The notes under the pieces were generated by a model. The model saw only the letters and a program-made list of their open reading frames with translations, was not told the origin of the DNA and did not search any database. The translations under genes were made by a program, and so were the position numbers. This document shows positions 2,917 through 25,364 of a DNA stretch of 31,562 nucleotides, one piece after another (the stretch's first letter is position 1; each line of letters starts with the position of its first letter). This DNA comes from a virus. The DNA lies in UHGV virus genome UHGV-0208736. One strand, given 5' to 3'.

Positions 2917-4337
2917 TTCTTACCTCGTCTCTTCATGTAATTAAGCAATTCTTCCTGTACCGATTTCTTCTCGTCTGTACGCGCGGCAACAACCTCGTCC
3001 AGCGTGTCTTTAGCAACGATGTGATAGAGGAATACCGGGCGTTCGTGGCCTGCCTGCTTCTGGCGGACCGGGCCTATACGCTCGACAACCTGCAAATAGT
3101 GCTCAAGGTTCCAGCCTTGCGAAATAAACGCCAGATGGTGACCGCCGTCCTGTAAATTCAAACCATGCCCGGCTGACGCAGGATGCACGCATAAGATTTC
3201 GATTTCGCCTCGGTTCCACGCCTCCATCTGCTTATTACCCTTCGCACCTTTAGAAAATGCCTGTGCCTGAGGGAATCGCTTAAGGATGCGTTCCAGTTCG
3301 TGCTTAAACTGATAGGCCACCAGTAACGGCGCACCCTGTAACTCCTCGACAATGGATTCCAGCGCATCCAGTTTCGTGTCATGAACTTTCTCCCAGTCTT
3401 TTGTTGCTTCGCCGTCCGGCCCTGATATGTACACTGCGCCGGATGCAATCTGCAAGCACTTCGACGTCTTCGCCGCTGCGTTAGCTGCTTCAACTTCTCC
3501 GCTTTCCAGCTCCGCGAATAGCTTCTCTTCCATGTCGATGTACGCCTGACGTGCTTTTTTCGGCAGGTCAATTTCAACCGGCACGATAATCGGCGCTTCA
3601 CACCCAAACCACTCGGCGGCGTCAATCGTGAGGCTGATGTCTTTCATCTTCTGGTGAATTTCGTTATCGGCGCCCGGGCGTGCGTGATACTCGCGGGCCA
3701 TCGCCGACTTACCTTTCTGTACAGAGTTAAACCATCGGTCGGTGAATGCCGTGTACGAAGAGCCGAGGCGCTCGCCTGCATCGATAAACCAGTTCTGACC
3801 CCACAAGTCCTTGAGGCCGTTTGGTGATGGCGTACCCGTCAGGTTAATGAAGCGCTTAACCTTTCCGAACGCCACTTTGCTAAGCGCCTTTGCCCTCTTG
3901 CTACCACCAGAACGGCTACGGAACGATTTCAGCTTCGTGCTTTCATCGGCAACGATAACAGTAAAAGGCCAGTCGTCTTTGCCGTAGTAGTCAATCAGCC
4001 ACTCGATAACTTCGTAGTTTGTACACACCACGTTAGCGTCTGACTCCAGCGCCGCGATACGGCGCTTCTCTGAACCTGTCGCATCGACGACGCTCAGACA
4101 TGGGAATTGCCATTTCTCTTGTTCCGCGGGCCATGTACCCGATGCAACGCGCAACGGGGCGAGGATTAACACCCGGTCCTCTTCCGTAAGCTGCCCGTTG
4201 CGGAACAGGCGGTTTAGAACCCACATTGTCGACGAGGTCTTGCCGCCGCCCATACCGCACCATATATTGCAACGTGGGTGCTGTAACATAAACGACGTCA
4301 TTATTTTCTGATATTCCCTGCGCCTAAACTTACTCAT
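2913..4337 (-). CDS. ATP-dependent DNA helicase, superfamily 2 (SNF2/DEAD-like)
   Basis: 474 aa; Walker A GMGGGKTS, DExx-like box IVADESTKL; start ATG overlaps stop of upstream HNH gene (ATGA); SD GGGGAG upstream. Confidence 0.7.
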   Translation of the reverse strand: MSKFRRREYQKIMTSFMLQHPRCNIWCGMGGGKTSSTMWVLNRLFRNGQLTEEDRVLILAPLRVASGTWPAEQEKWQFPCLSVVDATGSEKRRIAALESDANVVCTNYEVIEWLIDYYGKDDWPFTVIVADESTKLKSFRSRSGGSKRAKALSKVAFGKVKRFINLTGTPSPNGLKDLWGQNWFIDAGERLGSSYTAFTDRWFNSVQKGKSAMAREYHARPGADNEIHQKMKDISLTIDAAEWFGCEAPIIVPVEIDLPKKARQAYIDMEEKLFAELESGEVEAANAAAKTSKCLQIASGAVYISGPDGEATKDWEKVHDTKLDALESIVEELQGAPLLVAYQFKHELERILKRFPQAQAFSKGAKGNKQMEAWNRGEIEILCVHPASAGHGLNLQDGGHHLAFISQGWNLEHYLQVVERIGPVRQKQAGHERPVFLYHIVAKDTLDEVVAARTDEKKSVQEELLNYMKRRGKK

Positions 4338-5674: not shown

Positions 5675-5760
5675 AATACGCACCCCTCGCGTTTCGTATG
5701 TTCAATCCCGCAGCGCGGACAGATTCGGCAGTCTTCTTCATAGAACCAGTAAATTTTCAT
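5671..5760 (-). CDS. unannotated 29-aa Cys-rich peptide, possible zinc ribbon (MKIYWFYEEDCRICPRCGIEHTKREGCVL)
   Basis: CxxCxxC...C spacing; ATG overlaps upstream stop (ATGA) and its TGA overlaps the next ATG; weak SD so translation would rely on coupling. Confidence 0.3.
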   Translation of the reverse strand: MKIYWFYEEDCRICPRCGIEHTKREGCVL

Positions 5761-5888
5761 TCCAGCACCCACAGATAAATTGCGATAAACATGCCAAATA
5801 CGGCAACCATCATGCCGTATTGACCCTCGTGACAGTAGACACCGGCGGCGAATCCAGCCAGTACTGCGATAATCAGTTTACTTAGCAT
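5757..5888 (-). CDS. unannotated 43-aa hydrophobic (membrane) peptide
   Basis: MLSKLIIAVLAGFAAGVYCHEGQYGMMVAVFGMFIAIYLWVLE; ATG at 5888 lies 8 nt inside the 3' end of the DNA polymerase gene with AGAGGT SD 7 nt upstream. Confidence 0.35.
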   Translation of the reverse strand: MLSKLIIAVLAGFAAGVYCHEGQYGMMVAVFGMFIAIYLWVLE

Positions 5889-8148
5889 AACGGTACACCT
5901 CTTCCCCGGCCCATGTTAGTGGGAACCCTTTGGCCCATTCAGGTAATGAGCATAACAGGTCGCCCATCTCTTTAACCGTGTACTCCGGTGTGTCTGGTGT
6001 TTCGGCGACACACTCATCGTGTACGTGAAGTACAATTGGGTAGCCCGCTGCCTCGACCGTCAGGAGTCCGTTGACCAGTAAATCACGGCACAACGCTTGA
6101 ATGATGTTTTCACACAATTTTCCGCCGTGTGTGTACAAAGTCGTCCACTGGCGGGTGGTCTGATTTTCGCCCTGGTATTTAATGCGAACGTTAGTTGTTA
6201 CGCGCCCATCCTCGTCGGTCTCTTTAGTGACGCTTAAACCTATACCAGGGTAGGACATGATGCGCCCAGACGGCAGTTCCACACACAACCACCAACCCGG
6301 CACAAAGTTACCCTGTCTGTCTTTCTCTTTAGTACGCCAGATGCGAATAGCCCTGTCGCCGTTAAGGCGTACTCTGGCCCCCGCCCAAAACTCTCGTCCC
6401 GGATTTCTGATTGCAGCAATCACCGAATCCTTAAGGTCGTTCCAGAATCTCACTGTTTCCGGATGGGCCTCGCGCCACATGCGCTTGATAGCGTCGCAAG
6501 TGCGCCAGACTTCCTTAGGCAACACGTAAGAGGCCCGTTCGTCCTTTTTACCAGGTTTTGGCGGCCGCTTAGCCTCCTGAATCCGCGCCCATTCATAGCC
6601 TCGGGCAGTGGCGGCCCATATATGGTCAGGGAATGTCCCCCGCATTGTCTCCGTCATTTTAAAGAGGTCCAGCCCATAAGTTTTAGCCATAGTCATGAAG
6701 GCCCCTACACCTCCCTCGTAGCCGAGGCCCAGCTCGCAACATTTCCCGACCTGTCGTAGGTCTTTACGGGTGGCTTTCAGCTCTATAGGATCCATGCCAA
6801 ACATCTTGCCCGCAGTGGCGCAATAAATATCAATCCCCGCGCGGAACGTCTCAAGGGCAGATGTCTCCCCCGCCGTCCAGGCTAACCCACGGCCTTCCAC
6901 GTTCGAGTAGTCGGCAACGAGTAACTTATTACCTTTTTCCGGGATGATGCAGCTGCGGACAGTCGAGGCCGTTAGCTTAGATACATCAAAACGGCGATGC
7001 GCCCGGCCCTTTAAAAGCAAATTGATGCCGAAGGATAGCGGGTTAAGCCTGCGGTTCCAGTCTTCGTCGGACTCCCACGGCTGGCGTACGAGTTTCTTTT
7101 CCTCGTTAGTCGGGTCGTCGTGGTAGTACCCACGCGACAGGTTCTGCGGCTGGAACCCTTTGCCCGCAAATCGTAAAGTGCGCTTTGCCCCACCGTACTG
7201 GATGCAACCACGGCGTCGTCCGTCTTTGGACCGTCCTAGCAGGAGCGGTTTATATTTTGTTGACGCCGTGGAGGCCGCGCCGAGGCGCATCTCAATGATT
7301 GTGCGCGCATCGTTAGGTAAGTCGTCGTCCTCTAGCAAACCTTCGAGCGTTGCTTTCTGCGCATTATAAATATTGTAGGCCGGTGCCAGTTCCCGAAGGA
7401 TTGGCAGGAAGTCTTTGCCCGTTAGCTTCCCGCCAAATTTCGCGCGGGCCTCGTTTTTTAGCTCTTGCTTGTGACGTTCAACTGCCGCGACCGCCGCCTC
7501 AGCAAGAGCCGTATCGACAAAGAAGCCTCGGTCGTTGATTAGCTGGTCCAGTTCCAGTACACGGTCTTCGAACTCAGAGTTACCCCAACGCGGCAGCTTA
7601 TGGAAGACCTCACGCATTGCAGTGATGTCGCTTACGGCGTACTTGATGAACAGCGCCCACTCGTCCGGGTGTGTTTCCGCGGTGTAGCGACGGATTTTGT
7701 AGTTCTTCGGCGTCGGTTTAGAGAAACGCTGAATCAGCGCCTTGCCCCGCTTATCTTTCGCGTTGTCCGCAGATACTCCCAGCACTTCGCATAATGCATC
7801 GAGTGAACCCGGCAGCGCGTGGCGAAACGCCCAAATCATCGTATCAATGGTGTTGCTTACCGGAATATCAAAACCCCAGCAGTGCTTCATGATGAGCCTA
7901 TCGAACATTAAAAAGTTATGGCCCACGATTTTCATACGTCCGCGCATAACATTACGGAGCGCCATGCGTAGGCTTATTGGCATTACTGGTTCGGAAGTGC
8001 AATCCCATACTTCTACTGGACCATCATCAACGGCATACGTACAAATTATAACCTCTGTCGTTGGGTGCTCCGCATACGCATACGACCCGACTTTCTTTAA
8101 GTCTGCTTCGGAGAATGTCTCGGTATCCAGGTATAATAAACTAGTCAT
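5878..8148 (-). CDS. DNA polymerase, family A, with N-terminal 3'-5' exonuclease domain
   Basis: 756 aa; Exo I motif YLDTETFS; polymerase motif A LLVADYSNVEGR; motif C VLHVHDECV; AAGGAA SD upstream of ATG 8148. Confidence 0.85.
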   Translation of the reverse strand: MTSLLYLDTETFSEADLKKVGSYAYAEHPTTEVIICTYAVDDGPVEVWDCTSEPVMPISLRMALRNVMRGRMKIVGHNFLMFDRLIMKHCWGFDIPVSNTIDTMIWAFRHALPGSLDALCEVLGVSADNAKDKRGKALIQRFSKPTPKNYKIRRYTAETHPDEWALFIKYAVSDITAMREVFHKLPRWGNSEFEDRVLELDQLINDRGFFVDTALAEAAVAAVERHKQELKNEARAKFGGKLTGKDFLPILRELAPAYNIYNAQKATLEGLLEDDDLPNDARTIIEMRLGAASTASTKYKPLLLGRSKDGRRRGCIQYGGAKRTLRFAGKGFQPQNLSRGYYHDDPTNEEKKLVRQPWESDEDWNRRLNPLSFGINLLLKGRAHRRFDVSKLTASTVRSCIIPEKGNKLLVADYSNVEGRGLAWTAGETSALETFRAGIDIYCATAGKMFGMDPIELKATRKDLRQVGKCCELGLGYEGGVGAFMTMAKTYGLDLFKMTETMRGTFPDHIWAATARGYEWARIQEAKRPPKPGKKDERASYVLPKEVWRTCDAIKRMWREAHPETVRFWNDLKDSVIAAIRNPGREFWAGARVRLNGDRAIRIWRTKEKDRQGNFVPGWWLCVELPSGRIMSYPGIGLSVTKETDEDGRVTTNVRIKYQGENQTTRQWTTLYTHGGKLCENIIQALCRDLLVNGLLTVEAAGYPIVLHVHDECVAETPDTPEYTVKEMGDLLCSLPEWAKGFPLTWAGEEVYRYAK

Positions 8149-8614
8149 GGCAATAAAATTCCTTATGCAGTTTTTCTCTTAATTTCTTTACCGCGCTTTC
8201 TGCTTCTTCAAGAGTTCCGTAGCTACCAGCATTGTAACTTTTGTAGTTAAAGTGTACCCGCCCATAAAATCGGTTGCCGTTTTTAACTACTCCCTTAACT
8301 CCCGTTCTAGCTCCCTTATTTTTAGCGTTTCGCACATTATCTGCGGTGGTTGCTTTCCTTAGGTTAGAAATCCTATTGTCTAACCTGTCTCGGTTTATGT
8401 GGTCAAGAGGTCCCTCGGGCCATTCACCGTACTCGAAAAACCAAGCAAGCCTGTGGGCCATGTAATATCTGCCCATATAAGGTATTCGCCAGTATCCACT
8501 ACTATTGATGCATCCTGCGATGTCTCCAGGTTTTCCTCGTCTGTACGTAGGTTGTATCCATGTGAATATCCCGGTTTCTCGGTTATAGCTAAGAAAATCT
8601 TTTATATGTTCCAT
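8141..8614 (-). CDS. HNH homing endonuclease with AP2-type domain (start taken at ATG 8614; the track start at 8638 is TTG)
   Basis: HNH core MAHRLAWFFEYGEWPEGPLDHINRDRLDNRISNLR; AP2-like GVKGVVKNGNRFYGRVHFNYKSYNAGSYGTLEEAESA; AT-rich relative to neighbours; stop overlaps polymerase start by 8 nt. Confidence 0.75.
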   Translation of the reverse strand: MEHIKDFLSYNRETGIFTWIQPTYRRGKPGDIAGCINSSGYWRIPYMGRYYMAHRLAWFFEYGEWPEGPLDHINRDRLDNRISNLRKATTADNVRNAKNKGARTGVKGVVKNGNRFYGRVHFNYKSYNAGSYGTLEEAESAVKKLREKLHKEFYCHD

Positions 8615-8626
8615 TCTGACTCCGGT

Positions 8627-8649
8627 AAAAAGGCCCAATGAAGGGCCTT
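8627..8649 (-). terminator. rho-independent terminator on minus strand after the SSB-like gene
   Basis: Minus-strand RNA: AAGGCCC-UUCAUU-GGGCCUU followed by UUUACC; 20 nt downstream of the TAA at 8669-8671. Confidence 0.45.
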
Positions 8650-8668
8650 AGTTAAATTGATTCATATA

Positions 8669-9307
8669 TTAGCGGCGGCGACGTTCGCGACGCGGTGCAG
8701 GTTCATCATCCTCAAGGTCGTTAAGGTCTACGGTAGCTCCGGCACCGCCGAATGCTTCGCCATCATCCTTAAAGCGAACACCGAGGAGTTCTACGCCGAG
8801 GTTTTTATAAGTTGAGTACCAATACACATCAACTACGATATTAGCGTAACAACCAGAATAAACTTCCTTACCTTCTACATCGTCACCTGCTTCGGTAAGG
8901 CCCTTGACTACACGCCCGCCGCGTTGGCACTGCACCTCACCCTCAGAAGTCGCGATCATAGGTTGCTTACGGCTCTTAGCCATGAAATACAAACCTTCCT
9001 CAAGCCCTTCAATCGGTGAATCACGCTGTGCGAGGTCGCGGAACGCACATTTATCTGCATGGTTTCCGAAGCCGAAGTTTTTTGACATCCACTTTTCGGC
9101 GGCAGAAGCACTACCTAACGCTTCAGTCATAACTTCAGTTACAGCGTCTTCAATTTTCTCAATTTGCGGGTCGTCTTTATCCAGATACGCTGTAAGCTGG
9201 TATTGGCCTTCTACTTGTTGCCCCTGACTATTTACACGGTCCGCTGCTTTCTTATAAACGTCTACCCATCCGATACGCACGTTGCTCAGTTTAACTTTGA
9301 TACCCAT
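8669..9307 (-). CDS. possible ssDNA-binding protein (T7 gp2.5-like / DUF2815-like), acidic C-terminal region
   Basis: 212 aa; N-terminus MGIKVKLSNVRIGWVDVYKK...GQYQLTAYLDKDD resembles the gp2.5-like SSB family pattern (from memory); C-terminus DLNDLEDDEP; GAGGAA SD upstream; first gene after promoter P2. Confidence 0.4.
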   Translation of the reverse strand: MGIKVKLSNVRIGWVDVYKKAADRVNSQGQQVEGQYQLTAYLDKDDPQIEKIEDAVTEVMTEALGSASAAEKWMSKNFGFGNHADKCAFRDLAQRDSPIEGLEEGLYFMAKSRKQPMIATSEGEVQCQRGGRVVKGLTEAGDDVEGKEVYSGCYANIVVDVYWYSTYKNLGVELLGVRFKDDGEAFGGAGATVDLNDLEDDEPAPRRERRRR

Positions 9308-11359: not shown

Positions 11360-11830
11360 TTATTCTTCTTCGAAATACTTGTTCTTGATTGCCGTCAGGC
11401 GTTCAAGATATTCTGCAAGGTCTTCATCTTTAATCGCGGCAATCTTCATCTTCTTACCGGTGAACTCTTCCAGCAGTTCATCAGAATCATCGCACGCAGC
11501 ATCGCTTGGGCCCTCGTTAATCGCATCGTCGATAGCCTGAATCTGGTCACGCAGAGACTGGTAATCGACTTCTTCCTTCTCTTCTTCCGGCTCTGGCGCT
11601 GGCTCCTCTACTTTAGCTTTACGAGGCTTGCGTTTCGGCTTCTCTTCTTCTGCGGGTTTAGTGTCGACGATGTCTTCACCTTCGACTGGGATTTCTTTTG
11701 TTGCTTCTTTTGCAACAGTAGGCTCGATTGTTGCAGTTTCCGCAACGACAACCTGTTTTGCACTGTTCGCCGCAATCAGTTCGTGGGCAACTACGAAACG
11801 TTCCAGTAATTTTAAGAATTGGTCTAACAT
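11360..11830 (-). CDS. highly acidic early protein (156 aa), first gene of the early operon; candidate DNA-mimic / anti-restriction or host-takeover factor
   Basis: Very Glu/Asp-rich (EEEKPKRKPRKAKVEEPAPEPEEEKEEVDYQ...DDSDELLEEF...KDEDLAEYLER); strong SD GAGGAGAG; directly downstream of promoter P3. Confidence 0.5.
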   Translation of the reverse strand: MLDQFLKLLERFVVAHELIAANSAKQVVVAETATIEPTVAKEATKEIPVEGEDIVDTKPAEEEKPKRKPRKAKVEEPAPEPEEEKEEVDYQSLRDQIQAIDDAINEGPSDAACDDSDELLEEFTGKKMKIAAIKDEDLAEYLERLTAIKNKYFEEE

Positions 11831-11861
11831 TTGTTTCTCTCCTCTCGTTTGGTATGGGCTA

Positions 11862-11890
11862 ACTATAATAGTTAGCTATTCACATGTCAA
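11862..11890 (-). promoter_or_regulatory. sigma70-type promoter P3 (minus strand): -35 TTGACA, 17-nt spacer, -10 TATAGT; core AACTATAATAGTTAGCTATT (plus 11861-11880)
   Basis: Reverse complement reads TTGACA-N17-TATAGT; 20-bp core identical to P1; about 30 nt upstream of the early operon start codon. Confidence 0.55.
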
Positions 11891-11934
11891 TGGGCTTTTC
11901 TAAAATAATTAATATGGTACTATTCACATATCAA
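11876..11934 (+). promoter_or_regulatory. candidate plus-strand promoter (TTCACA-N16-TAAAAT) with two 15-bp direct repeats CTATTCACAT(G/A)TCAA as putative operator sites
   Basis: Repeats at 11876-11890 and 11920-11934 (14/15 identical, 44 bp apart); repeat 1 overlaps the -35 of both divergent promoters; repeat 2 lies between the predicted TSS and the SD of the HTH gene. Confidence 0.35.
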
Positions 11935-11954
11935 CTGACTAAGGAGTAATTGAC

Positions 11955-12170
11955 ATGCAACCATCTGAACTAGGCATCCGTGTAGAACAACGCCGTAAAG
12001 AACTCGGCCTCTCCCAGCGCCGTCTGGCTGTCCTGGCTGGCGTTTCCCAGGGCGCGATTAACCAGCTGGCACTCGGTGTAACCCAGGACGTCCGCCCGGC
12101 AACGCTGTTTAAACTGGCGGAAGTGCTGGAAGTAGATGCCAAGTGGCTGGCGTTCGGTGAAGGGGCTTAA
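11955..12170 (+). CDS. Cro/C1-type (XRE family) helix-turn-helix transcriptional regulator
   Basis: 71 aa; RKELGLSQRRLAVLAGVSQGAINQLALG is a canonical XRE HTH; SD AAGGAG 8 nt upstream; only plus-strand gene inside the minus-strand module. Confidence 0.75.
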   Translation: MQPSELGIRVEQRRKELGLSQRRLAVLAGVSQGAINQLALGVTQDVRPATLFKLAEVLEVDAKWLAFGEGA

Positions 12171-12186
12171 CGCCCCCTTTCTTTTT
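12162..12186 (+). terminator. rho-independent terminator after the HTH regulator gene
   Basis: GGGGC-TTAAC-GCCCC hairpin (stop codon within loop) followed by CTTTCTTTTT. Confidence 0.5.
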
Positions 12187-12188
12187 AC

Positions 12189-14450
12189 CTATTCCAAATC
12201 TTCCTCGGTTACTATCAGCATCTCATTCGGTTCGTATATTGTCTTCGGAATCTTGTTATCGTTTATGCCCCACGGCAACCGGTATTGCTTAGGTATAGGC
12301 CTGTTGTTGTTATCCAGACCTGAGACGATAATCCCGGCCTCGTGCATCTCCTCCAGTTTCTTTCGAAGGTCGTTATTAGCATTAATTGGTACGCCGTAAC
12401 TATCTTCTTTCGCCGCTTTGACGATAGCTGACATAGAGAACCCTCGTTTATCGTCACCCTGCTCCTGCAATTTACCCAATGCGTAAATAACCGTAGCCTC
12501 TTTGGTGTCCAGTTTCTCGAACTGGCCTACCTTTTCTTTAACGGCTTCCTTCTGTTCGTCGGTCAGACCTTCTACTTTCTTCACGAAGACAGAGAATGCG
12601 TTGAAGTTAACAAAGACATCAATATGCGGATTTCCTGCGTCAAAATCGCGTACATCATCACTACTATACCCTTCCGGAAGACCCATGAAGTTGTGAGTTG
12701 GTTCTTTCTTTTCTGGCGGCTCCGCTATCTGAATCTTCTGTATTACGAACCCTCTGGCTTTTTGCCGTTCTCCGTTTCGGTTCTTTATGTGGTACAGGTT
12801 TATCTCTAAGTTATTGTCGTTGTCCGGCTTATGCAGGAACATCCCGTTGTCGATGGAGTTGTGGAAATCACTACCACCCTTCGGCATCATGCCGTTCTCG
12901 GATGGTACTGTTTCGTCGATGTTTTTAGTCGGGTGCACCATAGCGCCTACCGCGGCGTTAAGCGTCGACGCTATTTCGTTAAGCGCCTGCGCCGCCTCTT
13001 TCATCGACCTGTTGTCGTTCTCGTCAAAACCAGGTATGCAAGTTTGCAGGGTATCAAACGTAACCTTTACAATTTTCTCTTCACCGGCAACACGACGCAT
13101 CATTCTCACCGCCTGGCGGCGCCACACCTCATCGAGTAAGTTACACCCTTCCGCGACACAATCGATGATGTGCAAGCGGTCAAGGCTATCGCCGAGGGCA
13201 ATCTGTAAAGATTTTTTATGCCTCTCGAACGACTGCGCACCTTCTCCAGCGAAAATGAACGCATGCCCTTCAGCAACCTCTGCCCCGCCGAACGCATATC
13301 TTTTTTCGGCAGCAATAGCGGCGTCAATCGCCATACTAAATGTTGACTTACCAGTGTGGGACTTTGCACAAATGTAGAATGATTCGTTAGTCTGCATAAG
13401 ACCGTCCACTACGGAGTAAGCAGGTTCTTTTTCTACTTCCGGCTCGTCTTCAAGGTCTTCAAGCGTGCAAGTTACAGGCTCCTCGTTCTCTGTGCGGTGC
13501 AGTTCTTCAATATCTTCATCCGGTAAATCAGGCAGAGCCGCACGGATGCTATTAATACTGATAGGTTGCTTGTCTACGTTAAGCTCGTCCGGAAGACCGC
13601 ACATACGCAGGGCCAAATGCTGCCGACGGTTTAGCTCAGTGCAAGCGCCATTGTTTGTATGCTGGCAGACAAAGCGCACTTCTTTACCGTCAAGCATGAT
13701 GCTTGTGGAGCCTTTGCCGGTATGCAGATGTTCGTTAGGGCATGGAACTTCGTACCCGCGCCCGGAAGATAAAGCGTCAAGGCCAAGCTCCGCTTCGCAG
13801 AAATGCGCTATATCAGCGTTAAGCCCATGCTCATCGGCAGCAAGTGTCTTAGCTTCACGTTTACGCAGCCCCATCTCTTCGGCTTTCTTGATGTACCGCT
13901 CCGCACGGATAACGCGCCCTTCAGTAACAGTTATCTTTGACTCTTTATGAGGCAGGTAGATAAGGCGGTTGCCGTCTTCGGTGCAGTGGTCGCGCAACGC
14001 TTCGTCTATTTCTAACTCCGCACAAATAGCACGTTGCACCATCCATGCATCGTTAGAGTTAAATGGAGTGCGGGCAGGTACGAGAACGCGGAAAGCGTAG
14101 TCACCGTTTTTACACGCGTGCTGGTGCGACGCCGTTGTGTGCAGAATATTGAAGAACGTCGCGTTCTTGAATTTGCGGGTAAGGTCGCGGTACTGAGTAC
14201 GGTTGAGATGGTCAAAGTCGAACTTAACCACACTATCTTCCAGAATCGCGTTCTTACGGCGACCCCCAACAGGTGCAATTGCTTTCTGCTTAATCTTGGC
14301 AGCGTCGTACTCTTCCTTAGACCACGACGGATCCACGGATAAACGCTTGGATGTATCGCAGACATACTCTACGAACTGCTCCAGCGGCATTTCACGAGCT
14401 ACAGGGTTTTTATCGAATGTGTTGCGCAGTGTCGCAAAAACAATATTCAT
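12189..14450 (-). CDS. DNA primase-helicase-like replication protein: archaeo-eukaryotic primase (AEP)-type N-terminal domain plus P-loop NTPase domain
   Basis: 753 aa; AEP-like motifs KFDFDH (DxD) and TTASHQH (sxH); Walker A AKSHTGKST; Walker-B-like LHIID. Confidence 0.6.
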   Translation of the reverse strand: MNIVFATLRNTFDKNPVAREMPLEQFVEYVCDTSKRLSVDPSWSKEEYDAAKIKQKAIAPVGGRRKNAILEDSVVKFDFDHLNRTQYRDLTRKFKNATFFNILHTTASHQHACKNGDYAFRVLVPARTPFNSNDAWMVQRAICAELEIDEALRDHCTEDGNRLIYLPHKESKITVTEGRVIRAERYIKKAEEMGLRKREAKTLAADEHGLNADIAHFCEAELGLDALSSGRGYEVPCPNEHLHTGKGSTSIMLDGKEVRFVCQHTNNGACTELNRRQHLALRMCGLPDELNVDKQPISINSIRAALPDLPDEDIEELHRTENEEPVTCTLEDLEDEPEVEKEPAYSVVDGLMQTNESFYICAKSHTGKSTFSMAIDAAIAAEKRYAFGGAEVAEGHAFIFAGEGAQSFERHKKSLQIALGDSLDRLHIIDCVAEGCNLLDEVWRRQAVRMMRRVAGEEKIVKVTFDTLQTCIPGFDENDNRSMKEAAQALNEIASTLNAAVGAMVHPTKNIDETVPSENGMMPKGGSDFHNSIDNGMFLHKPDNDNNLEINLYHIKNRNGERQKARGFVIQKIQIAEPPEKKEPTHNFMGLPEGYSSDDVRDFDAGNPHIDVFVNFNAFSVFVKKVEGLTDEQKEAVKEKVGQFEKLDTKEATVIYALGKLQEQGDDKRGFSMSAIVKAAKEDSYGVPINANNDLRKKLEEMHEAGIIVSGLDNNNRPIPKQYRLPWGINDNKIPKTIYEPNEMLIVTEEDLE

Positions 14451-14575
14451 TTCTTTTTCTCCGCACGTTCTAAGGCTTCCTGCATACGACGCATTGCGCG
14501 GTTCATCTTTACCGGTGCGAAGAAATCAGCGCCGTGTTTCTGGCGGCGTAGCTGTGGAACTATTAACTTCGTCAT
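14447..14575 (-). CDS. unannotated 42-aa basic peptide (MTKLIVPQLRRQKHGADFFAPVKMNRAMRRMQEALERAEKKK)
   Basis: AAGGA SD upstream of ATG 14575; TGA overlaps primase ATG (ATGA); below track cutoff. Confidence 0.35.
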   Translation of the reverse strand: MTKLIVPQLRRQKHGADFFAPVKMNRAMRRMQEALERAEKKK

Positions 14576-14625
14576 TGTATAATCCTTGTGCTTACTTTGA
14601 TGATTTGTACTTTAACCCCGACGTT

Positions 14626-14859
14626 CTAGCGTTGGGGTTTCTTTTGCCTACGTGCAGCATTAATCCACTCTCCTTCGCTCTGGTAGAAACTGCAATCAAG
14701 AATATCCTCTATAGAAAATTTAACTATTTTAGTGGGTCCACAAAAGTTATAAGGGAAAAGTTCTACATAACACCCATCGTCAGTTATATTTGACGCAATC
14801 TTGAAATAATATTTAACGCTGCCGTCTTCACGGAAGCTACAACCCATACGCCCAATCAT
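14626..14859 (-). CDS. hypothetical protein (77 aa), AT-rich gene
   Basis: ORF with ATG overlapping stop of the upstream HTH gene; markedly lower GC than flanking genes. Confidence 0.45.
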   Translation of the reverse strand: MIGRMGCSFREDGSVKYYFKIASNITDDGCYVELFPYNFCGPTKIVKFSIEDILDCSFYQSEGEWINAARRQKKPQR

Positions 14860-15026
14860 TTCACGTTCTCCTTAATCCACGCTTCAACTTTATTACGGTC
14901 AAATGTTCCCGGCATCCGGCGGCCCATTACTTTAACGCTGCAATCAGGAAACTTTCCACTCTTAATCCAGTTATTAATTGTCTGACGCGTCACCCCGATA
15001 CGTTCTGCAACTTCATTGATAGTCAT
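14856..15026 (-). CDS. unannotated AlpA/excisionase-type helix-turn-helix regulator (56 aa), first gene of the primase operon
   Basis: MTINEVAERIGVTRQTINNWIKSGKFPDCSVKVMGRRMPGTFDRNKVEAWIKENVK; HTH plus conserved W matching the AlpA/Xis-like HTH_17 pattern; SD AGGAGA 5 nt upstream; below track cutoff. Confidence 0.6.
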   Translation of the reverse strand: MTINEVAERIGVTRQTINNWIKSGKFPDCSVKVMGRRMPGTFDRNKVEAWIKENVK

Positions 15027-15131
15027 TTAACGTTCTCCTATGTAAGATGTACCGAAGTATAAGGCGGTAACTTTGTAAAAGCAACCAAAACACCACACAA
15101 AGTTACTAAGATACAAAAGATGCTACTGGTA

Positions 15132-15160
15132 TTGACTTTTACTAAGAAATATGGTAAGCT
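15132..15160 (+). promoter_or_regulatory. candidate late promoter: -35 TTGACT, 17-nt spacer, extended -10 TGgTAAGCT
   Basis: Seen directly in sequence; lies in the 360-bp gap between the divergent early and late modules. Confidence 0.45.
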
Positions 15161-15340
15161 CAGCCTGAGCTTGTGAAGTATGAACAAGCGACCGCGGCGC
15201 GGGCAGGTAACGGAGCGGGACGTAAGTCCTGAGTGTAGTTACGCTGACGCGTTCGGAAGGGCCATACTCTATTGCTTGTGTAAAAAGTAACTGGTTTACT
15301 GAGATTACGCCGTTTCTATGTTTAAATGATAAGGACTAGC

Positions 15341-15368
15341 GCCCCGCTTTAAGGCGGGGCTTTACTTA
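15341..15368 (+). terminator. intrinsic terminator at the end of a ~200-nt leader, 18 nt upstream of the first late gene
   Basis: GCCCCGC-TTTAAG-GCGGGGC hairpin followed by TTTACTTATC; located between the promoter at 15132-15160 and the SD of the i-spanin gene. Confidence 0.55.
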
Positions 15369-15385
15369 TCGAGAAAGGGGGAAAC

Positions 15386-15772
15386 ATGAATCTTAAAGCA
15401 ACTGTCGTAGCAGGAGCATGTTTCATCATCCTGGCTTACGCACACGGCATCTACCAGTATCGCAGCGGCTGGAACGAAGGCCGGGCGAATCTCGTTTCGC
15501 AGCAACAGCAGAAAGCACAGGCCGAGTTAGCGAAGAAAACACAACGGCAGCAGCAGAACGAATCGAAGGCTGCAGCCGCTGACATCGAAGGCAAGACGAA
15601 ATCAGAGGTGATTACCCGTGAAGTCGTTAAGTACATTAAAACGCCTGGTCGCAGCGTGTGCACTTTCGATGATGCTCGCGTCCTGCTCAAGTCCCGCGCC
15701 GTCGCAAACGCCAATTCCATCCCCGGATACGACGATGATGCAGCCGCCGTGCAAACTGGCCGCGCCAAGTAG
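15386..15772 (+). CDS. i-spanin (Rz-like inner-membrane spanin subunit)
   Basis: 128 aa; N-terminal TM segment ATVVAGACFIILAYAHGIY followed by Gln/Lys/Ala-rich coiled-coil periplasmic domain; strong SD GAGAAAGGGGG; contains embedded o-spanin gene in another frame. Confidence 0.6.
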   Translation: MNLKATVVAGACFIILAYAHGIYQYRSGWNEGRANLVSQQQQKAQAELAKKTQRQQQNESKAAAADIEGKTKSEVITREVVKYIKTPGRSVCTFDDARVLLKSRAVANANSIPGYDDDAAAVQTGRAK

Positions 15773-15881
15773 CGACGCGGACGAGGATTTGGCTATCGAC
15801 GTTCAGAATGCCGAATGTGTACGGCAGCTAAGACTGAAAGTGTTCATGTTGCAGGATTACGTGCGGAATATTCTGGAATAG
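15618..15881 (+). CDS. o-spanin (Rz1-like outer-membrane lipoprotein), overlapping the i-spanin gene in the +1 frame and extending 109 nt beyond it
   Basis: GTG start with SD AGAGGTG; lipoprotein signal MKSLSTLKRLVAACALSMMLAS|C with lipobox LASC; Pro-rich mature region SSPAPSQTPIPSPDTT. Confidence 0.6.
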   Translation: MKSLSTLKRLVAACALSMMLASCSSPAPSQTPIPSPDTTMMQPPCKLAAPSSDADEDLAIDVQNAECVRQLRLKVFMLQDYVRNILE

Positions 15882-15963
15882 TTGCCTTGCATGTTGGAAT
15901 AATTTATTCTTGACATGTAAATCCGGGTGGCCCGGATTCCAACGTCCAGGGGACATACTGACT

Positions 15964-16665
15964 ATGAATCGTTTTTTACGTTATCCGTTCCAGGAAGAAG
16001 CTGGGGCAGAAGATAAATCTGGTGGCGGTGATGCGCCGAAAATGTTCACCGCTGAAGAAGTTCAGGCGCTGATTGAGAAAGAAGTCGCCGGGCTTAAGGC
16101 TAATCAGGAAGCATTGCTGGCGGAGAAGAAAGAAGCCGCTCGTAAAGCAAAAGAGGCCGAAGAAGAACGGCAGCGCGCACACCAGGAGGCGTTAAAAGCC
16201 GCTGGTAAGATGGACGAGTTCGAAAAGACGATTCGTAGCCAGTATGACCCGGTGTTAGCCGAGAAAGATGGTCGCATCTCCAGAATGGCAGAGCGCATCC
16301 TCGGCAGCGAACGTAAAGCGGTGTTAGGCTCTTTCGCGGGTGACTTTATTACCCCGGAAGCAGTAGACATTCTTGCACCGTTCGTTAAGACTGAGTTTGA
16401 AGGTGATGATGTGGTTACTAAGTTTGTCGGTGCAGATGGCAACGTAATCACGACTGACCCGGAACAGTTCCGCAAATACCTGCGCGAACATAAAGCGTTT
16501 TCGCATTTGATTAAAGCAAATGCAGCTTCCGGCGGCGGGGCTTCCGGCAGCAAAGGCGGCGGGGCCGCACCAGCGTTTAAAGACATGAGTGAAGCAGAGC
16601 GTTTAGCTCTGTATAAATCGAACCCTGCCGAATTTGAACGGCAACTTAAAGCCCTGAGGAAATAA
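15964..16665 (+). CDS. capsid scaffolding protein (233 aa from ATG 15964; the track start at 15910 is TTG)
   Basis: Charged coiled-coil-rich protein (EEVQALIEKEVAGLKANQEALLAEKKEAARKAKEAEEERQ) immediately upstream of the major capsid gene. Confidence 0.55.
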   Translation: MNRFLRYPFQEEAGAEDKSGGGDAPKMFTAEEVQALIEKEVAGLKANQEALLAEKKEAARKAKEAEEERQRAHQEALKAAGKMDEFEKTIRSQYDPVLAEKDGRISRMAERILGSERKAVLGSFAGDFITPEAVDILAPFVKTEFEGDDVVTKFVGADGNVITTDPEQFRKYLREHKAFSHLIKANAASGGGASGSKGGGAAPAFKDMSEAERLALYKSNPAEFERQLKALRK

Positions 16666-16667
16666 TA

Positions 16668-17717
16668 ATGGCAATTACCACTATCGGCGATATCGTAACT
16701 GGCAACATCCCGGTCCTTGCGTCTTATATGACAGAGGACCCGGTAGAAAAAACCGCGTTCTTCCAGTCCGGTATTCTCACCCCTACCCCGTACGCTGCCG
16801 AGATTGCTCGCGGTCCGTCCAACATCGCTAATATCCCTTTCTGGAAAGCGATTGATACATCTATCGAACCGAACTACTCGAACGACGTATACCAGGACAT
16901 CGCAACCCCGCGTAATGTCCAGACCGGTGAGATGATGGCTCGCGTAGCGTACCTGAACGAAGGTTTCGGTCAGGCGGACCTGACGGTAGAACTGACCAGT
17001 CAGAACCCGCTGCAATCCGTAGCGTCCCGTCTGGATAACTTCTGGCAGCGCCAGGCACAACGTCGTCTGATTGCTACCGCGCTCGGCCTGTACAACGACA
17101 ACGTAGCTGCGACCGATGCGTACCACGAGCAGAATGACATGGTTATCGACGTGTCTGCTACTATGGGCTTCGACTCTGGCGCGTTCATCGACGCTACTCA
17201 GACTATGGGTGATGCGCTGATGGGTAACGGTGGTGAAGTGCTGGGTGCTATCGCGATGCACAGCTTCGTTTATGCGCAGGCCCGTAAGCAGCAGCTTATC
17301 GACTTCATCCGCGATGCGGACAACAACACCATGTTCGCCACCTACCAGGGCTATCGTGTGATTGTTGATGACAGCATGACCGTAGTCGGTACTGGCGGCA
17401 GCCGTAAGTTCATCTCCATTATCTTCGGCAACGGCGCTATCGGTTACGGCGAAGGTAACCCGGTCAAACCGCTGCACTACGAGTACGAAGCGTCCCGTGG
17501 TAACGGTGGTGGTGTCGAAACCCTGTGGACCCGTAAGACCTGGTTACTGCATCCGTTCGGCTACAGCTTCACCAGCGCAGTAATCACCGGCAACGGCACC
17601 GAGACCGTCGCACGCTCCGCTTCCTGGCAGGACCTGGCGAACGCCTCCAACTGGAACCGTGTGGTTGAGCGTAAGCACGTGCCGATTGCCTTCCTGGTAA
17701 CTGGTGTAGGCGCTTAA
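16668..17717 (+). CDS. major capsid protein
   Basis: 349 aa; follows scaffold with SD GAGGAA; strongly biased codon usage; followed by strong UUCG-loop terminator. Confidence 0.65.
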   Translation: MAITTIGDIVTGNIPVLASYMTEDPVEKTAFFQSGILTPTPYAAEIARGPSNIANIPFWKAIDTSIEPNYSNDVYQDIATPRNVQTGEMMARVAYLNEGFGQADLTVELTSQNPLQSVASRLDNFWQRQAQRRLIATALGLYNDNVAATDAYHEQNDMVIDVSATMGFDSGAFIDATQTMGDALMGNGGEVLGAIAMHSFVYAQARKQQLIDFIRDADNNTMFATYQGYRVIVDDSMTVVGTGGSRKFISIIFGNGAIGYGEGNPVKPLHYEYEASRGNGGGVETLWTRKTWLLHPFGYSFTSAVITGNGTETVARSASWQDLANASNWNRVVERKHVPIAFLVTGVGA

Positions 17718-17732
17718 GGTTAAGCTATAATC

Positions 17733-17760
17733 GAGAGGGACTTCGGTCCCTCTTTTCATT
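17733..17760 (+). terminator. rho-independent terminator after major capsid gene
   Basis: AGAGGGAC-TTCG-GTCCCTCT hairpin followed by TTTCATTT. Confidence 0.6.
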
Positions 17761-17776
17761 TACTAAGAGGTAAAGT

Positions 17777-22246: not shown

Positions 22247-22252
22247 AACTAA

Positions 22253-22276
22253 GGCCCCTTTCGGGGCCTTTTTCTT
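22253..22276. terminator. bidirectional rho-independent terminator between major tail gene and the minus-strand accessory island
   Basis: GGCCCC-TTTC-GGGGCC followed by TTTTTCTT (plus); on minus strand the same hairpin is followed by UUAGUUUUAU. Confidence 0.6.
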
Positions 22277-22514: not shown

Positions 22515-23015
22515 CTATTTATAACCGTTGTTGAATGTTGTCAGCCCGTGGTTTATGTGGAATTTATTGGCTACGGACATGTAAATTCTTTCCGCAAAAG
22601 CGTCCTCTATTCTGTCAAATGTTTTACTAATCTGCTTGCCATTGACAACGGCATACGCTCTCCACTTAGTTTTTCCTTTCCGCGCCACGCCAGTAACTCC
22701 AGAGGTATTATCTTTGCGCCTTTTCACGTTAACCATGTTGTCCCTTCTTGATTTGCAGGACAGGTTTTCAATTCTGTCATCACATGTATCATGGTTAGTG
22801 TGGTCTATGACAAATCCTTTCGGAATCTTACCTGAGAACATCTCATACACCACCCTCGACCTTTTAAACTTACGGTTGCCAAACATGACGTACCAATAGC
22901 CGTTTTTACACAAACTCCCAGCCACATCACCTACATTCACATCGTTACGGCGACACGATTTTACTTTCCAGTATAGGACGCCGTTTTTGTAGCTAAAAAC
23001 TTCGCTCCAGTCCAT
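22515..23015 (-). CDS. HNH homing endonuclease with AP2-type domain (third copy)
   Basis: HNH core GFVIDHTNHDTCDDRIENLSCKSRRDN; AP2-like GVTGVARKGKTKWRAYAVVNGKQISKTFDRIEDAFAERIY. Confidence 0.75.
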   Translation of the reverse strand: MDWSEVFSYKNGVLYWKVKSCRRNDVNVGDVAGSLCKNGYWYVMFGNRKFKRSRVVYEMFSGKIPKGFVIDHTNHDTCDDRIENLSCKSRRDNMVNVKRRKDNTSGVTGVARKGKTKWRAYAVVNGKQISKTFDRIEDAFAERIYMSVANKFHINHGLTTFNNGYK

Positions 23016-23030
23016 CCTTTCACCTGTATT

Positions 23031-24185
23031 TTAGTATGTTGATTTGGGGTTCATATCTCGCAGCATTTCAACAGGTATACTTATACGGGACACCTCGCCG
23101 TATCGTTTATGGTATGTAATCACATTTGCGCTCCTGCCGGAATAATAGCCGCCTTTACTAGAATACTCATCTTTAGCCGCTAATGTCTGGTGTTGCTCAA
23201 CAATTAGAAGATTAGTCTCTTTAACCGCCCTGTGATGAAGGTGGCCCGTATGGACATATGTGAACTTACACTGCCCGTACATCTCACGATACTTACCAAT
23301 TATAGACTGCTCTACCCTAGTAAAGTTAGAGCAATGCCCGTGGTGCGCCGAAATCATACAATCCCCGAACTTGTACGCATAATACGGCGATACCTCCCGG
23401 TTAACCTCAACACGAGGCTCGTTTGTGTACACCTCATAGAACATCTCTCTGAGCCACAGAGAAGAACTAAGGTCGTGGTTTCCCTCGCAAATAAGAAGTT
23501 TAACCTTCTTGTGTTTTCGCAGGCACAGCGAGACCGCCAGCTTGATAACCTTAACGGCTGTACGTATCATTTTAAACAGGCGACTATCCGCTGAAAGAAT
23601 ATGGCCGCTCATAGGGGTCATTGCCTTCATGCCATCGTAGTGCATCTGGTCCCCTAAGAAGTTAATGATACACTCCCCGCTCTGCGGACTCATACAAACC
23701 GCACTGTTGAACCAGTCAACTGCGAGAGATTCCGCAATTGTGGTGTCGTAATCATCTCCGCCTTCTTCTTGACACGCCAGCATACCGATGTGATGGTCCG
23801 TTATTGTGTAAAGATTTAATAAGTCGTCATCTGTGTCATTTTTAAGCAAAGTGGCCGGTTTATACTTAGGTAAATCTTTTTTCATCTCGTCCACAACGGC
23901 TTTCATCAATTCGACCTGACGTTCAGCGTCGGTGTCAGTCTTAACCCATTGCAGCTTAGTGTTGCCGAACTCGTCCACAAGTGACGACGTCCCTTTAATC
24001 TTGTATCCATCTGGCACAAGGTGACTAACGTCTCGCCCGTGACCTACGCCTTTCTTTGCCAGCTTCGCCTTACGGATACGAATAACGCGGTCTGAGATGC
24101 CGTATTTACGGGCTATATCGATATTCTTCATCCCGGCATTCAATTCTTCCTGTAACTGCTCATCGGTTATTTTCTTCTGGGCCAT
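23031..24185 (-). CDS. HTH-fused calcineurin-like metallophosphoesterase (Mre11/SbcD- or class III phosphodiesterase-like motif set)
   Basis: 384 aa; N-terminal HTH IDIARKYGISDRVIRIRKAKL; complete phosphoesterase motif series TDHH (DxH), FLGDQMHYDG (GD), ICEGNHD (GNHD), SAHHGH, HTGHLHH (GHxH); SD GAGGA. Confidence 0.65.
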   Translation of the reverse strand: MAQKKITDEQLQEELNAGMKNIDIARKYGISDRVIRIRKAKLAKKGVGHGRDVSHLVPDGYKIKGTSSLVDEFGNTKLQWVKTDTDAERQVELMKAVVDEMKKDLPKYKPATLLKNDTDDDLLNLYTITDHHIGMLACQEEGGDDYDTTIAESLAVDWFNSAVCMSPQSGECIINFLGDQMHYDGMKAMTPMSGHILSADSRLFKMIRTAVKVIKLAVSLCLRKHKKVKLLICEGNHDLSSSLWLREMFYEVYTNEPRVEVNREVSPYYAYKFGDCMISAHHGHCSNFTRVEQSIIGKYREMYGQCKFTYVHTGHLHHRAVKETNLLIVEQHQTLAAKDEYSSKGGYYSGRSANVITYHKRYGEVSRISIPVEMLRDMNPKSTY

Positions 24186-24432: not shown

Positions 24433-24489
24433 TTGGTGTAAGTGAATAGTACCCTATTATATTGGGGTGCGCAAGTAATGTGATAGAAT
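24433..24489. promoter_or_regulatory. divergent promoter region: plus-strand TTGGTG-N16-TATTAT and TTGGGG-N16-TAGAAT; minus-strand TATAAT (plus 24456-24461) for the accessory island
   Basis: Seen directly; located in the 167-bp gap between the island and the tail chaperone gene; the minus -35 (ATCACA) is weak. Confidence 0.35.
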
Positions 24490-24582
24490 AATTTTGCACC
24501 TAGTGTCGCACACGAAAAGCGGGTGGTTCCCGTCTGGTGCATTTACCGTTAACCTGTAACCTCTTAACCAAAGGATTAAAGA

Positions 24583-24999: not shown

Positions 25000-25364
25000 A
25001 CGCGCTGTACAGGTTCGCCACCTACGAGTTTGTGGATAAGCATAAAATCAGAGAGTTTGATTCTATAGCTGACGGGCACGAACAGGCGCTTATCGCGATG
25101 GGTGTAATCGATAAGAAAAAACGTGCAGCGCGACGGGGTGGGCCAGAATGCCCGCCCCTTTTTATATCCACCTTTGAAACGTACTGTGACATTAAGTTTA
25201 CGCGACACGTGCGCGAGGACGCTGTAGTATTGTTTGCAAGAGAATCCGTTACGTGGCAAGACCTGAAAGCCTATCTCGATGTTACGCAAAAACAGCTTAG
25301 CCTGTTCGAGATAGACATTATCATGGGCTTAGAAGCAATCTTTGAAGGTAGAAATCATGGCTGA
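24969..25364 (+). CDS. tail assembly chaperone frameshift extension (gpT-like portion of a G-T fusion), -1 frame
   Basis: The -1 frame is open from 24969 to 25364, overlapping the last 10 codons of the G gene; no good in-frame ATG/SD of its own (the track start is GTG at 25032). Confidence 0.45.
   Translation, partial: RRAQSITGKVDALYRFATYEFVDKHKIREFDSIADGHEQALIAMGVIDKKKRAARRGGPECPPLFISTFETYCDIKFTRHVREDAVVLFARESVTWQDLKAYLDVTQKQLSLFEIDIIMGLEAIFEGRNHG

Follow-up and report, generated by a model that had tools for sequence, protein, structure and literature searches.

How phages of the genera Kagunavirus and Jerseyvirus, with no polymerase of their own and no recognisable activator or antiterminator, time their late genes appears to be uncharacterised. 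These phages are among those most commonly isolated on Escherichia coli and Salmonella, and they are used in therapy and biocontrol. The question is raised in compact form by one locus of the virus genome UHGV-0208736, a stretch of 31,562 nucleotides (nt) that was analysed as a whole and is called the window here. At this locus a promoter, a leader of about 200 nt (from transcription start to U-tract) and a terminator-like hairpin stand directly before the first gene of the structural operon. Megablast identifies the window as a Kagunavirus (Guernseyvirinae), one of the virulent siphoviruses of E. coli that are kin to the Salmonella Jerseyviruses. The main feature of the locus, absent from an earlier note on it, is a 96-nt RNA domain at the 5′ end of the leader that is supported by covariation and occurs twice per Kagunavirus genome. 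The element is best described as an undescribed structured leader RNA inside a known kind of promoter-leader-terminator control module, and this module is the main promoter-leader unit of the head/structural operon in a Kagunavirus-type virulent siphovirus. An RNA domain at the head of the structural operon, with a second, early copy in Kagunavirus, is a concrete and testable candidate for late-gene control.

The domain occupies the first 96 nt of the predicted transcript (15167-15262, plus strand, as are all features of the module) and consists of a 5′-terminal hairpin followed by a long irregular hairpin. The first hairpin, P0 (GCUUGU-GAAGUAUGA-ACAAGC, 15169-15189), starts at +3 and is part of the minimum free energy (MFE) structure. 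The second (P1-P4, 15192-15256) has an MFE structure identical to the comparative model and is backed by covariation. From its base upwards it is made of P1 (CCG(C)GGCGC paired with GCGUUCGG, 15192-15200 / 15249-15256, with a bulged C and tandem G.U pairs), P2 (GGCAG/CUGAC, 15202-15206 / 15244-15248), P3 (GUAAC/GUUAC, 15207-15211 / 15238-15242), an internal loop (GGAG / AGUGUA, 15212-15215 / 15232-15237) and P4 (GGGAC-GUAA-GUCCU, 15217-15230). Over the first ~100 nt the variants differ from each other through compensatory changes. Four of the six P0 pairs show double changes, the hairpin reading UACGCU-UUC-AGCGUA in Jerseyvirus and GCUUGUG/CGCAAGC in variant KA4. RNAalifold, run on a plain MAFFT alignment, recovers the basal helix CCG(C)GGYGC / GCRUUCGG and the apical hairpin, and in this unfitted alignment one P1 pair occurs as C-G, U-A and A-U.

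We built a covariance model (R1) from 12 Kagunavirus variants and a manually derived structure (P0 plus P1-P4), searched it against the fetched loci and computed covariation statistics on 35 distinct sequences of the R1-derived alignment (A3). In that alignment 93.5% of cells hold a pair, against a mean of 81.3% after shuffling and 28-39% with slid partners, and in 19 of 30 pairs both partners have changed. None of 500 shuffles equalled the observed percentage paired, the pairs or cells with double changes, or the covariation score. The alignment was fitted to R1, which biases these values in favour of the structure; the fold is secure despite the fitting because of the size of the effect, the P1 pair in the unfitted MAFFT alignment and the identity of the model with the MFE structure of the window copy (-38.3 kcal/mol, z = -3.0, 42% of the ensemble). 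Compensatory pairs thus exceed the controls, as expected of a structured non-coding RNA in general. Conserved G.U pairs are frequent, which makes the plus strand the functional one. P1, the internal loop and the flank UUCGGAAGGGCC on the 3′ side of P1 form the conserved core, whereas P4 has a freely varying apical loop that reads GUAA, GUUA, GUCA, GUUAA, AUUA, CACA or UCACAA. Rfam gave no match in the whole window at gathering thresholds and chance-level matches alone (E >= 0.7) in a permissive search of 14900-15600, no tRNA or tmRNA gene was found, and a search of the full-text literature, sequence strings included, found the element nowhere described.

The promoter that precedes the domain consists of the -35 hexamer TTGACT (15132-15137) and the extended -10 element TGgTAAGCT (15152-15160; TG at 15152-15153 and TAAGCT at 15155-15160), separated by a 17-nt spacer. 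The earlier note had read it from the sequence as a sigma70-type promoter, TTGACT-N17-TGgTAAGCT, and a comparison of 92 collected copies supports both that reading and its position. All 92 have the 17-nt spacer and the TG, with C, A, G or T as the next base; the -35 element is TTGACT in 78, TAGACT in 10, TAGATT in 3 and TCGACT in 1, and the -10 hexamer is TAAGCT or TACGCT. A -35 element near TTGACA, a 17-nt spacer, TGn and a -10 hexamer with A2 and T6 are the marks of an extended -10 sigma70 promoter, and the pattern of conservation is as expected of a functional one. Given the good -35 and the extended -10, host sigma70 RNA polymerase should recognise it without an activator. A generic promoter scan does not list the 15132 promoter because TAAGCT agrees with TATAAT at just 3 of 6 positions. 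Judged by a spacing of 7-8 nt past the -10 element, transcription would start at G15167 or A15168, and the covariance-model match starts at 15167.

Downstream of the domain, the leader continues as an A/U-rich, poorly structured spacer (15257-15340; z = +1.3 when 15263-15340 is folded), and RNAalifold on full leaders of the structural-operon type finds no conserved structure in the 3′ half except the terminator. By eye, the spacer motifs CTATTG (15269-15274), AAGTAACT (15285-15292) and CGCCGT (15308-15313) are common to other leader types, namely those before both the early and the structural genes in Kagunavirus and Jerseyvirus; AAGTWACT, taken as a DNA operator, shows no significant genome-wide enrichment. 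The leader ends in the terminator-like hairpin GCCCCGCT-TTAA-GGCGGGGC (15341-15360; 8 pairs, 7 of them G-C) with the tail TTTACTTATC, and the whole feature with its interrupted U-tract TTTACTTAT covers 15341-15369. It folds at -17.2 kcal/mol (z = -2.8), is the top terminator-like site in a local scan, and varies in relatives through compensatory stem changes (GCCCCGC/GCGGGGC, GCCCTGC/GCAGGGC, GCCCGGC/GCCGGGC, GCCCGAC/GTCGGGC). A stable GC-rich hairpin with a U-rich tract is the anatomy of an intrinsic terminator; the tail UUUACUUAU is interrupted, and the efficiency of the predicted terminator is uncertain.

The next gene is the first of the structural operon. Its open reading frame (ORF; 15386-15772, 128 amino acids) encodes an i-spanin (Rz-like spanin) according to the annotation of relatives, an exact-protein look-up matched no record, and the genes for o-spanin, scaffold and major capsid protein come next. 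The Shine-Dalgarno sequence GGGGG (15377-15381) and the ATG at 15386 (together 15377-15388) lie ~16-17 nt and 25 nt, respectively, from the hairpin, close to the 18 nt before the Shine-Dalgarno sequence given earlier, and the earlier picture of a ~200-nt leader with a GC-rich hairpin and U-tract directly before the i-spanin gene holds. RP180, a relative with an intact genome, has a reverse-strand gene and a bidirectional terminator (5745-5765) that part the terminase, portal and head genes from the corresponding promoter and would block transcription from upstream, and we found no promoter in the interval from the leader hairpin to the spanin gene. The spanin, scaffold and capsid genes would hence be expressed only if polymerase passes the leader hairpin, and the earlier claim that the operon needs read-through appears correct. 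A 36-codon ORF inside the leader (15180-15290, plus strand), noted earlier as weakly supported, exists and is not conserved: 1-nt indels among variants give 9, 22 or 36 codons, and its ATG is GTG in one contig (L081) and absent in KA4 and the Jerseyvirus type. We reject it as a gene.

The leader alone has matches in 181 phage records, 180 of them at >=90% and 160 at >=95% identity; the typical range over about 180 records is 94-98%. In RP180 the promoter, together with ~70 nt from the start of the leader, is present in two copies. Copy A (promoter at 38057) lies after the divergent AlpA-like helix-turn-helix (HTH) and primase-helicase genes and before small early genes; copy B (promoter at 6137) lies before the spanin, scaffold and capsid genes. 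The R1 model finds exactly two domains in this genome, at 6172 and 38092, each right after the same kind of promoter and with a GC hairpin 3′ of it, and both copies are present in at least ten further contigs. The same model finds one domain in the window and one, at the B position with 37 bits, in the Jerseyvirus SETP7, whose genome was scanned whole and has no domain in the early region; in Pantoea phage AH01 it gives no hit. By BLAST, neither the AH01 leader nor that of SETP7 has a paralogue in its own genome. The copy-A leader of Jerseyvirus has the 3′ motifs alone in common with copy A of Kagunavirus, and its 5′ end is a different hairpin pair. Leaders at equivalent positions in AH01 (L201 12040-12480) and SETP7 (L049 36470-36800) are unrelated in sequence, long, GC-rich and hairpin-ended, and structured leaders may be a general feature of the subfamily. 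Copy-A leaders (L002 ~3240-3262, L008, L323-L328) also have variable tetranucleotide repeats just before the hairpin, (CTCA)3-6 or (GTGA)2-3, the C-rich (CTCA) form of which resembles a Rho-loading tract.

The domain also moves. One and the same 5′ domain variant occupies position A in L023 and position B in L011, and Salmonella phage S100, a Jerseyvirus, carries a Kagunavirus-type cassette at 97-100% identity amid flanking genes at 64-90% (L322 1501-1900 compared with window 15132-15530), which indicates recent horizontal exchange between genera. Since it has moved between loci and between genera, domain plus promoter form a portable unit, and part of the very high conservation of the leader is therefore owed to horizontal exchange and not to constraint alone. 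Beyond these phages, blastn against 5,426 complete E. coli genomes gave no match, so that host mimicry is not supported, and a loose gapped pattern in viral contigs and a metagenome scan returned mainly chance GC-rich matches and no new variant class. The conserved motif matched contigs of GTDB genomes 64 times, against ~170 matches expected by chance by our own estimate, and none of these scored with the R1 model (best E = 0.058).

The copy in the window is not a regular one. Matches to most relatives open exactly at 15132 (query position 533), that is, at the -35 element. The window aligns to RP180 in two parts, 11693-15207 to 34607-38133 and 15132-17770 to 6137-8774, which overlap by the 76-nt repeat common to copies A and B (15132-15207), a recombination or assembly junction. 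The crossover lies between 15166 and ~15200: the sequence is A-type upstream through the -10 region (‘CAGCC’ 3′ of the -10) and B-type (‘GGGCAGGTAACGG’) from ~15200 on, which makes the window copy, on this comparison, a chimera of an A promoter and a B leader. When the end of the window is joined to its start, the join is colinear with RP180 22943-23229, so the window is a closed circle of 31,562 bp. Relative to RP180 this circle lacks ~12.9 kb with early genes, holin/endolysin, terminase, portal and head morphogenesis genes, whereas in six of six other contigs with the identical AlpA-like protein the order is normal and copy A is followed by early genes. The ~12.9 kb has evidently been lost between the two 76-nt direct repeats, either by true deletion or by assembly collapse. 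Such a genome could not package itself and is therefore a defective deletion or a collapsed assembly, of which collapse is perhaps more likely; a direct repeat of this kind can collapse assemblies or yield deletions. The native place of the AlpA-like gene is therefore not beside the late operon, and the AlpA-like HTH protein (14856-15026), earlier proposed as a candidate regulator, is adjacent solely through the loss.

Two further features touch the promoter. On the minus strand, a promoter-like TTCACA-18-CATATT (15177-15148) stands back-to-back over the rightward promoter and the initial transcribed region; it may serve the AlpA-like/primase operon as a leftward promoter, and copy B has the identical sequence too. 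Just 5′ of the -35 element is a perfect 10-bp inverted repeat, GTAACTTTGT (15067-15076) and ACAAAGTTAC (15097-15106), 20 nt apart, which is kept in six related contigs (L323-L328) and not in RP180. The repeat may serve as an operator or form a hairpin in the leftward leader.

What, then, might the leader do? The near-consensus -35 and extended -10 of the promoter argue for control after initiation, as at lambda PR′, and such control would be the simplest means of timing or dosing the expression of spanin, scaffold and capsid. Our preferred reading, which we hold tentatively and at somewhat less than even confidence, is that the leader module controls read-through after initiation, with the 5′ RNA domain acting in cis by a nut- or put-like logic. 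The promoter would fire via host sigma70 polymerase with no activator, and expression of spanin, scaffold and capsid would be set at the leader hairpin. Read-through would be decided in cis by the 5′ domain, either through a factor that it binds (nut-like) or through its own action on RNA polymerase (put-like), and polymerases that stop would leave an RNA of ~200 nt. Its start at +3, its conservation, its portability and its second copy, at another promoter that likewise has a hairpin downstream, mark the domain as the obvious candidate for the controlling element.

Read-through control by a leader RNA has several known forms, and the module is not a demonstrated member of any known family. 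Similar in general architecture are putL and putR of HK022, antiterminator RNAs that work independently of protein and modify RNA polymerase via the zinc-binding domain of its beta′ subunit. They too are promoter-proximal, form two adjacent bulged stem-loops upstream of terminators and occur as two related, non-identical copies per genome, as the domain does in Kagunavirus; putL likewise begins at +3 (PMC9378689). They differ in length (~70 nt compared with 96 nt here) and in belonging to a lambdoid phage and not a virulent siphovirus, and SETP7 has a single copy of the domain. The HK022 put sites, numbered as in PMC9378689, gave no match to R1 even with filters off, and a GC-rich similarity seen by eye is superficial. 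The likeness is thus one of general architecture, and by sequence and by model the domain does not belong to the put family. The nut sites of the lambda N system resemble the domain as cis RNA sites early in two transcription units, upstream of terminators. N recognises the boxB loop, whereas the apical loop of P4 varies here, and no N-like protein was recognised; boxA (CGCUCUUA-like), boxB and ops were sought in 15132-15400 with generous mismatch limits and none was found. Bacillus EAR and conAn, the latter from pLS20-type conjugative elements (PMC8191782), are likewise long structured leaders just 3′ of an operon promoter that promote read-through, as is proposed here. Their hosts and sequences are unrelated, however, and the leader domain has no Rfam match; conAn requires a protein partner, and none is identified for the leader domain.

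A stronger form of the preferred reading is that virulent enterobacterial siphoviruses have, in the 96-nt domain, an antiterminator RNA of a new cis-acting class, which would modify the host polymerase either directly, in the put-like manner and with no phage protein, or through a host factor. We consider this unlikely, at roughly one chance in five. As such a class, the domain would offer the P0/P1 junction and the UUCGGAAGGGCC flank as its polymerase-binding surface. Action on the polymerase could explain why the domain travels with its promoter as a cassette between loci and genera. It would also extend RNA-mediated antitermination beyond the put elements of HK022-type lambdoids and provide a compact, portable regulatory part.

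Several observations weigh against control of read-through by the domain. Two sites per genome are not universal, because SETP7 has the domain at B only. The Jerseyvirus hairpin has a poor U-tract (TTAGCGTAT; tail UUAGCGUAU), which may make it an inefficient terminator; after the copy-A hairpins comes CGTTCGTTTCG in place of a U run, and these hairpins may be non-terminating. We found no alternative pairing between domain and terminator. Tail genes may have a promoter of their own, independent of the one at 15132, and as they appear to have one, long-range processive antitermination is not required. The one RNA-seq study found for a Kagunavirus, of phage vB_Eco_K1B4 (PMC12645636), is an analysis without intergenic RNA. 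Finally, copy A has a second conserved promoter, TTGCAC-N17-TACTAT, 3′ of its leader hairpin and just before the first early gene, and this layout would fit an independent small-RNA gene as well as a leader.

That last point leads to the alternative that survives best, to which we give a minor but real chance: both copies could be stand-alone genes for abundant RNAs of ~190-200 nt that act in trans on host or phage targets or bind protein, the structural genes being reached via leaky termination. The order of a folded 5′ domain, a spacer without structure (z = +1.3) and a terminator is that of bacterial trans-acting small RNAs, the early genes have a promoter of their own downstream of copy A, and the A and B spacers have the motifs CUAUUG, AAGUWACUG and GCCGU in common. 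Yet the U-tails are short or interrupted when set against those of Hfq-dependent small RNAs, no target was identified, and E. coli genomes hold no similar sequence. Spanin, scaffold and capsid, moreover, have no visible promoter other than that of copy B, which makes substantial read-through obligatory.

The leader could instead act on messenger RNA stability or processing, which we regard as rather improbable. The hairpin at +3 would protect against RNase E decay from the 5′ end, the long hairpin would be an RNase III signal of the kind found in T7 early messages or in the lambda N leader, and the hairpin before the Shine-Dalgarno sequence would stabilise the message. P0 begins 2 nt from the predicted 5′ end, as close as in 5′ stabilisers of the ompA type, and the long hairpin is an irregular helix of ~24 bp broken by an asymmetric internal loop, like the RNase III hairpins of T7; we take it to resemble T7 R1.1-type sites. 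The leaders of Jerseyvirus copy A and AH01, unrelated in sequence yet GC-rich and structured, also fit such a function. However, P1, its 3′ flank and the internal loop are kept more strongly than a generic stabiliser or double-stranded RNA site needs, and processing near the 5′ end would make a monophosphate end, which favours decay.

The earlier note had likened the locus to lambda PR′/tR′ under control of Q. The anatomy agrees with this in outline: as in lambda PR′/6S RNA/tR′, a promoter that we infer to be free of an activator, a ~200-nt leader and an intrinsic terminator stand before the late genes, a short terminated RNA is expected, and the near-consensus -35 with its extended -10 argues for control after initiation. 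Pfam and PHROGs recognised nothing Q- or N-like in the tested window proteins or in 17 early proteins of RP180, although a novel, unrecognisable protein is possible. Classical Q antitermination (PR′/qut/tR′), in which a DNA-binding Q-like protein loads on a paused polymerase near the promoter, is improbable to our mind. Kagunavirus copies A and B do have promoter and initial transcribed region in common, and the Jerseyvirus type, alone, repeats the -10 hexamer TACGCT exactly, 3 nt 3′ of the -10, a repeat that might serve as a sigma-dependent pause signal. But the corresponding Kagunavirus repeat, TGAGCT, lacks the critical A at position 2, and AAGTAT in the Kagunavirus P0 loop is not kept in KA4, so that a pause element in this type is ambiguous at best. 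The A and B promoters of Jerseyvirus are dissimilar. In contrast to lambda, the conserved feature is an RNA fold and not a DNA site, its compensatory changes point to selection on RNA pairing and not on DNA sites alone, and it comes in two copies in Kagunavirus, one of them before early genes.

The two weakest alternatives are both very improbable. A metabolite- or ion-sensing riboswitch or other attenuator governing the terminator would suit the layout, in which a terminator comes after a conserved folded domain whose stems covary and whose internal-loop nucleotides are kept, but the domain matches no Rfam family, is a single hairpin at its core with no junction or pseudoknot, lies ~80 nt from the terminator and shows no competing antiterminator pairing, and the 3′ part and hairpin of copy A differ. 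T7-like origins have primers driven from promoters, copy A adjoins the replication module and an ATG-initiated 36-codon ORF is present, so a DNA-level element (origin, primer promoter or packaging signal) or a small protein-coding gene was considered, but the pairing is specific to one strand, as the conserved G.U pairs show, the replication genes lie far from copy B, and in relatives indels disrupt the ORF and its ATG is lost.

The surroundings of the module bear on how the rest of the genome is transcribed. The second conserved promoter, TTGCrCACCCCAAyATAATAGGrTACTATTCAC, lies at 24474-24442 (minus strand) in the window and at -6070, -16015, +38355 and +39821 in RP180 (L050), where the signs give the strand; by its positions it is predicted to drive early genes and reverse-strand gene islands in the late region. 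Its spacer is also conserved, which suggests a regulator-binding site. By eye, a possible extended -10, TGaTAGAAT (24480-24488), stands ahead of the tail assembly chaperone genes, together with (within 24480-24582) a structured 5′ untranslated region with UGCACC...GGUGCA around GCGGG/CCCGU. Strong terminator-like hairpins on the plus strand follow the major capsid gene (17733-17754) and the tail tube gene (22251-22270, bidirectional). A further plus-strand hairpin of this kind lies within the tail chaperone region (25135-25158) and may relate to the chaperone frameshift.

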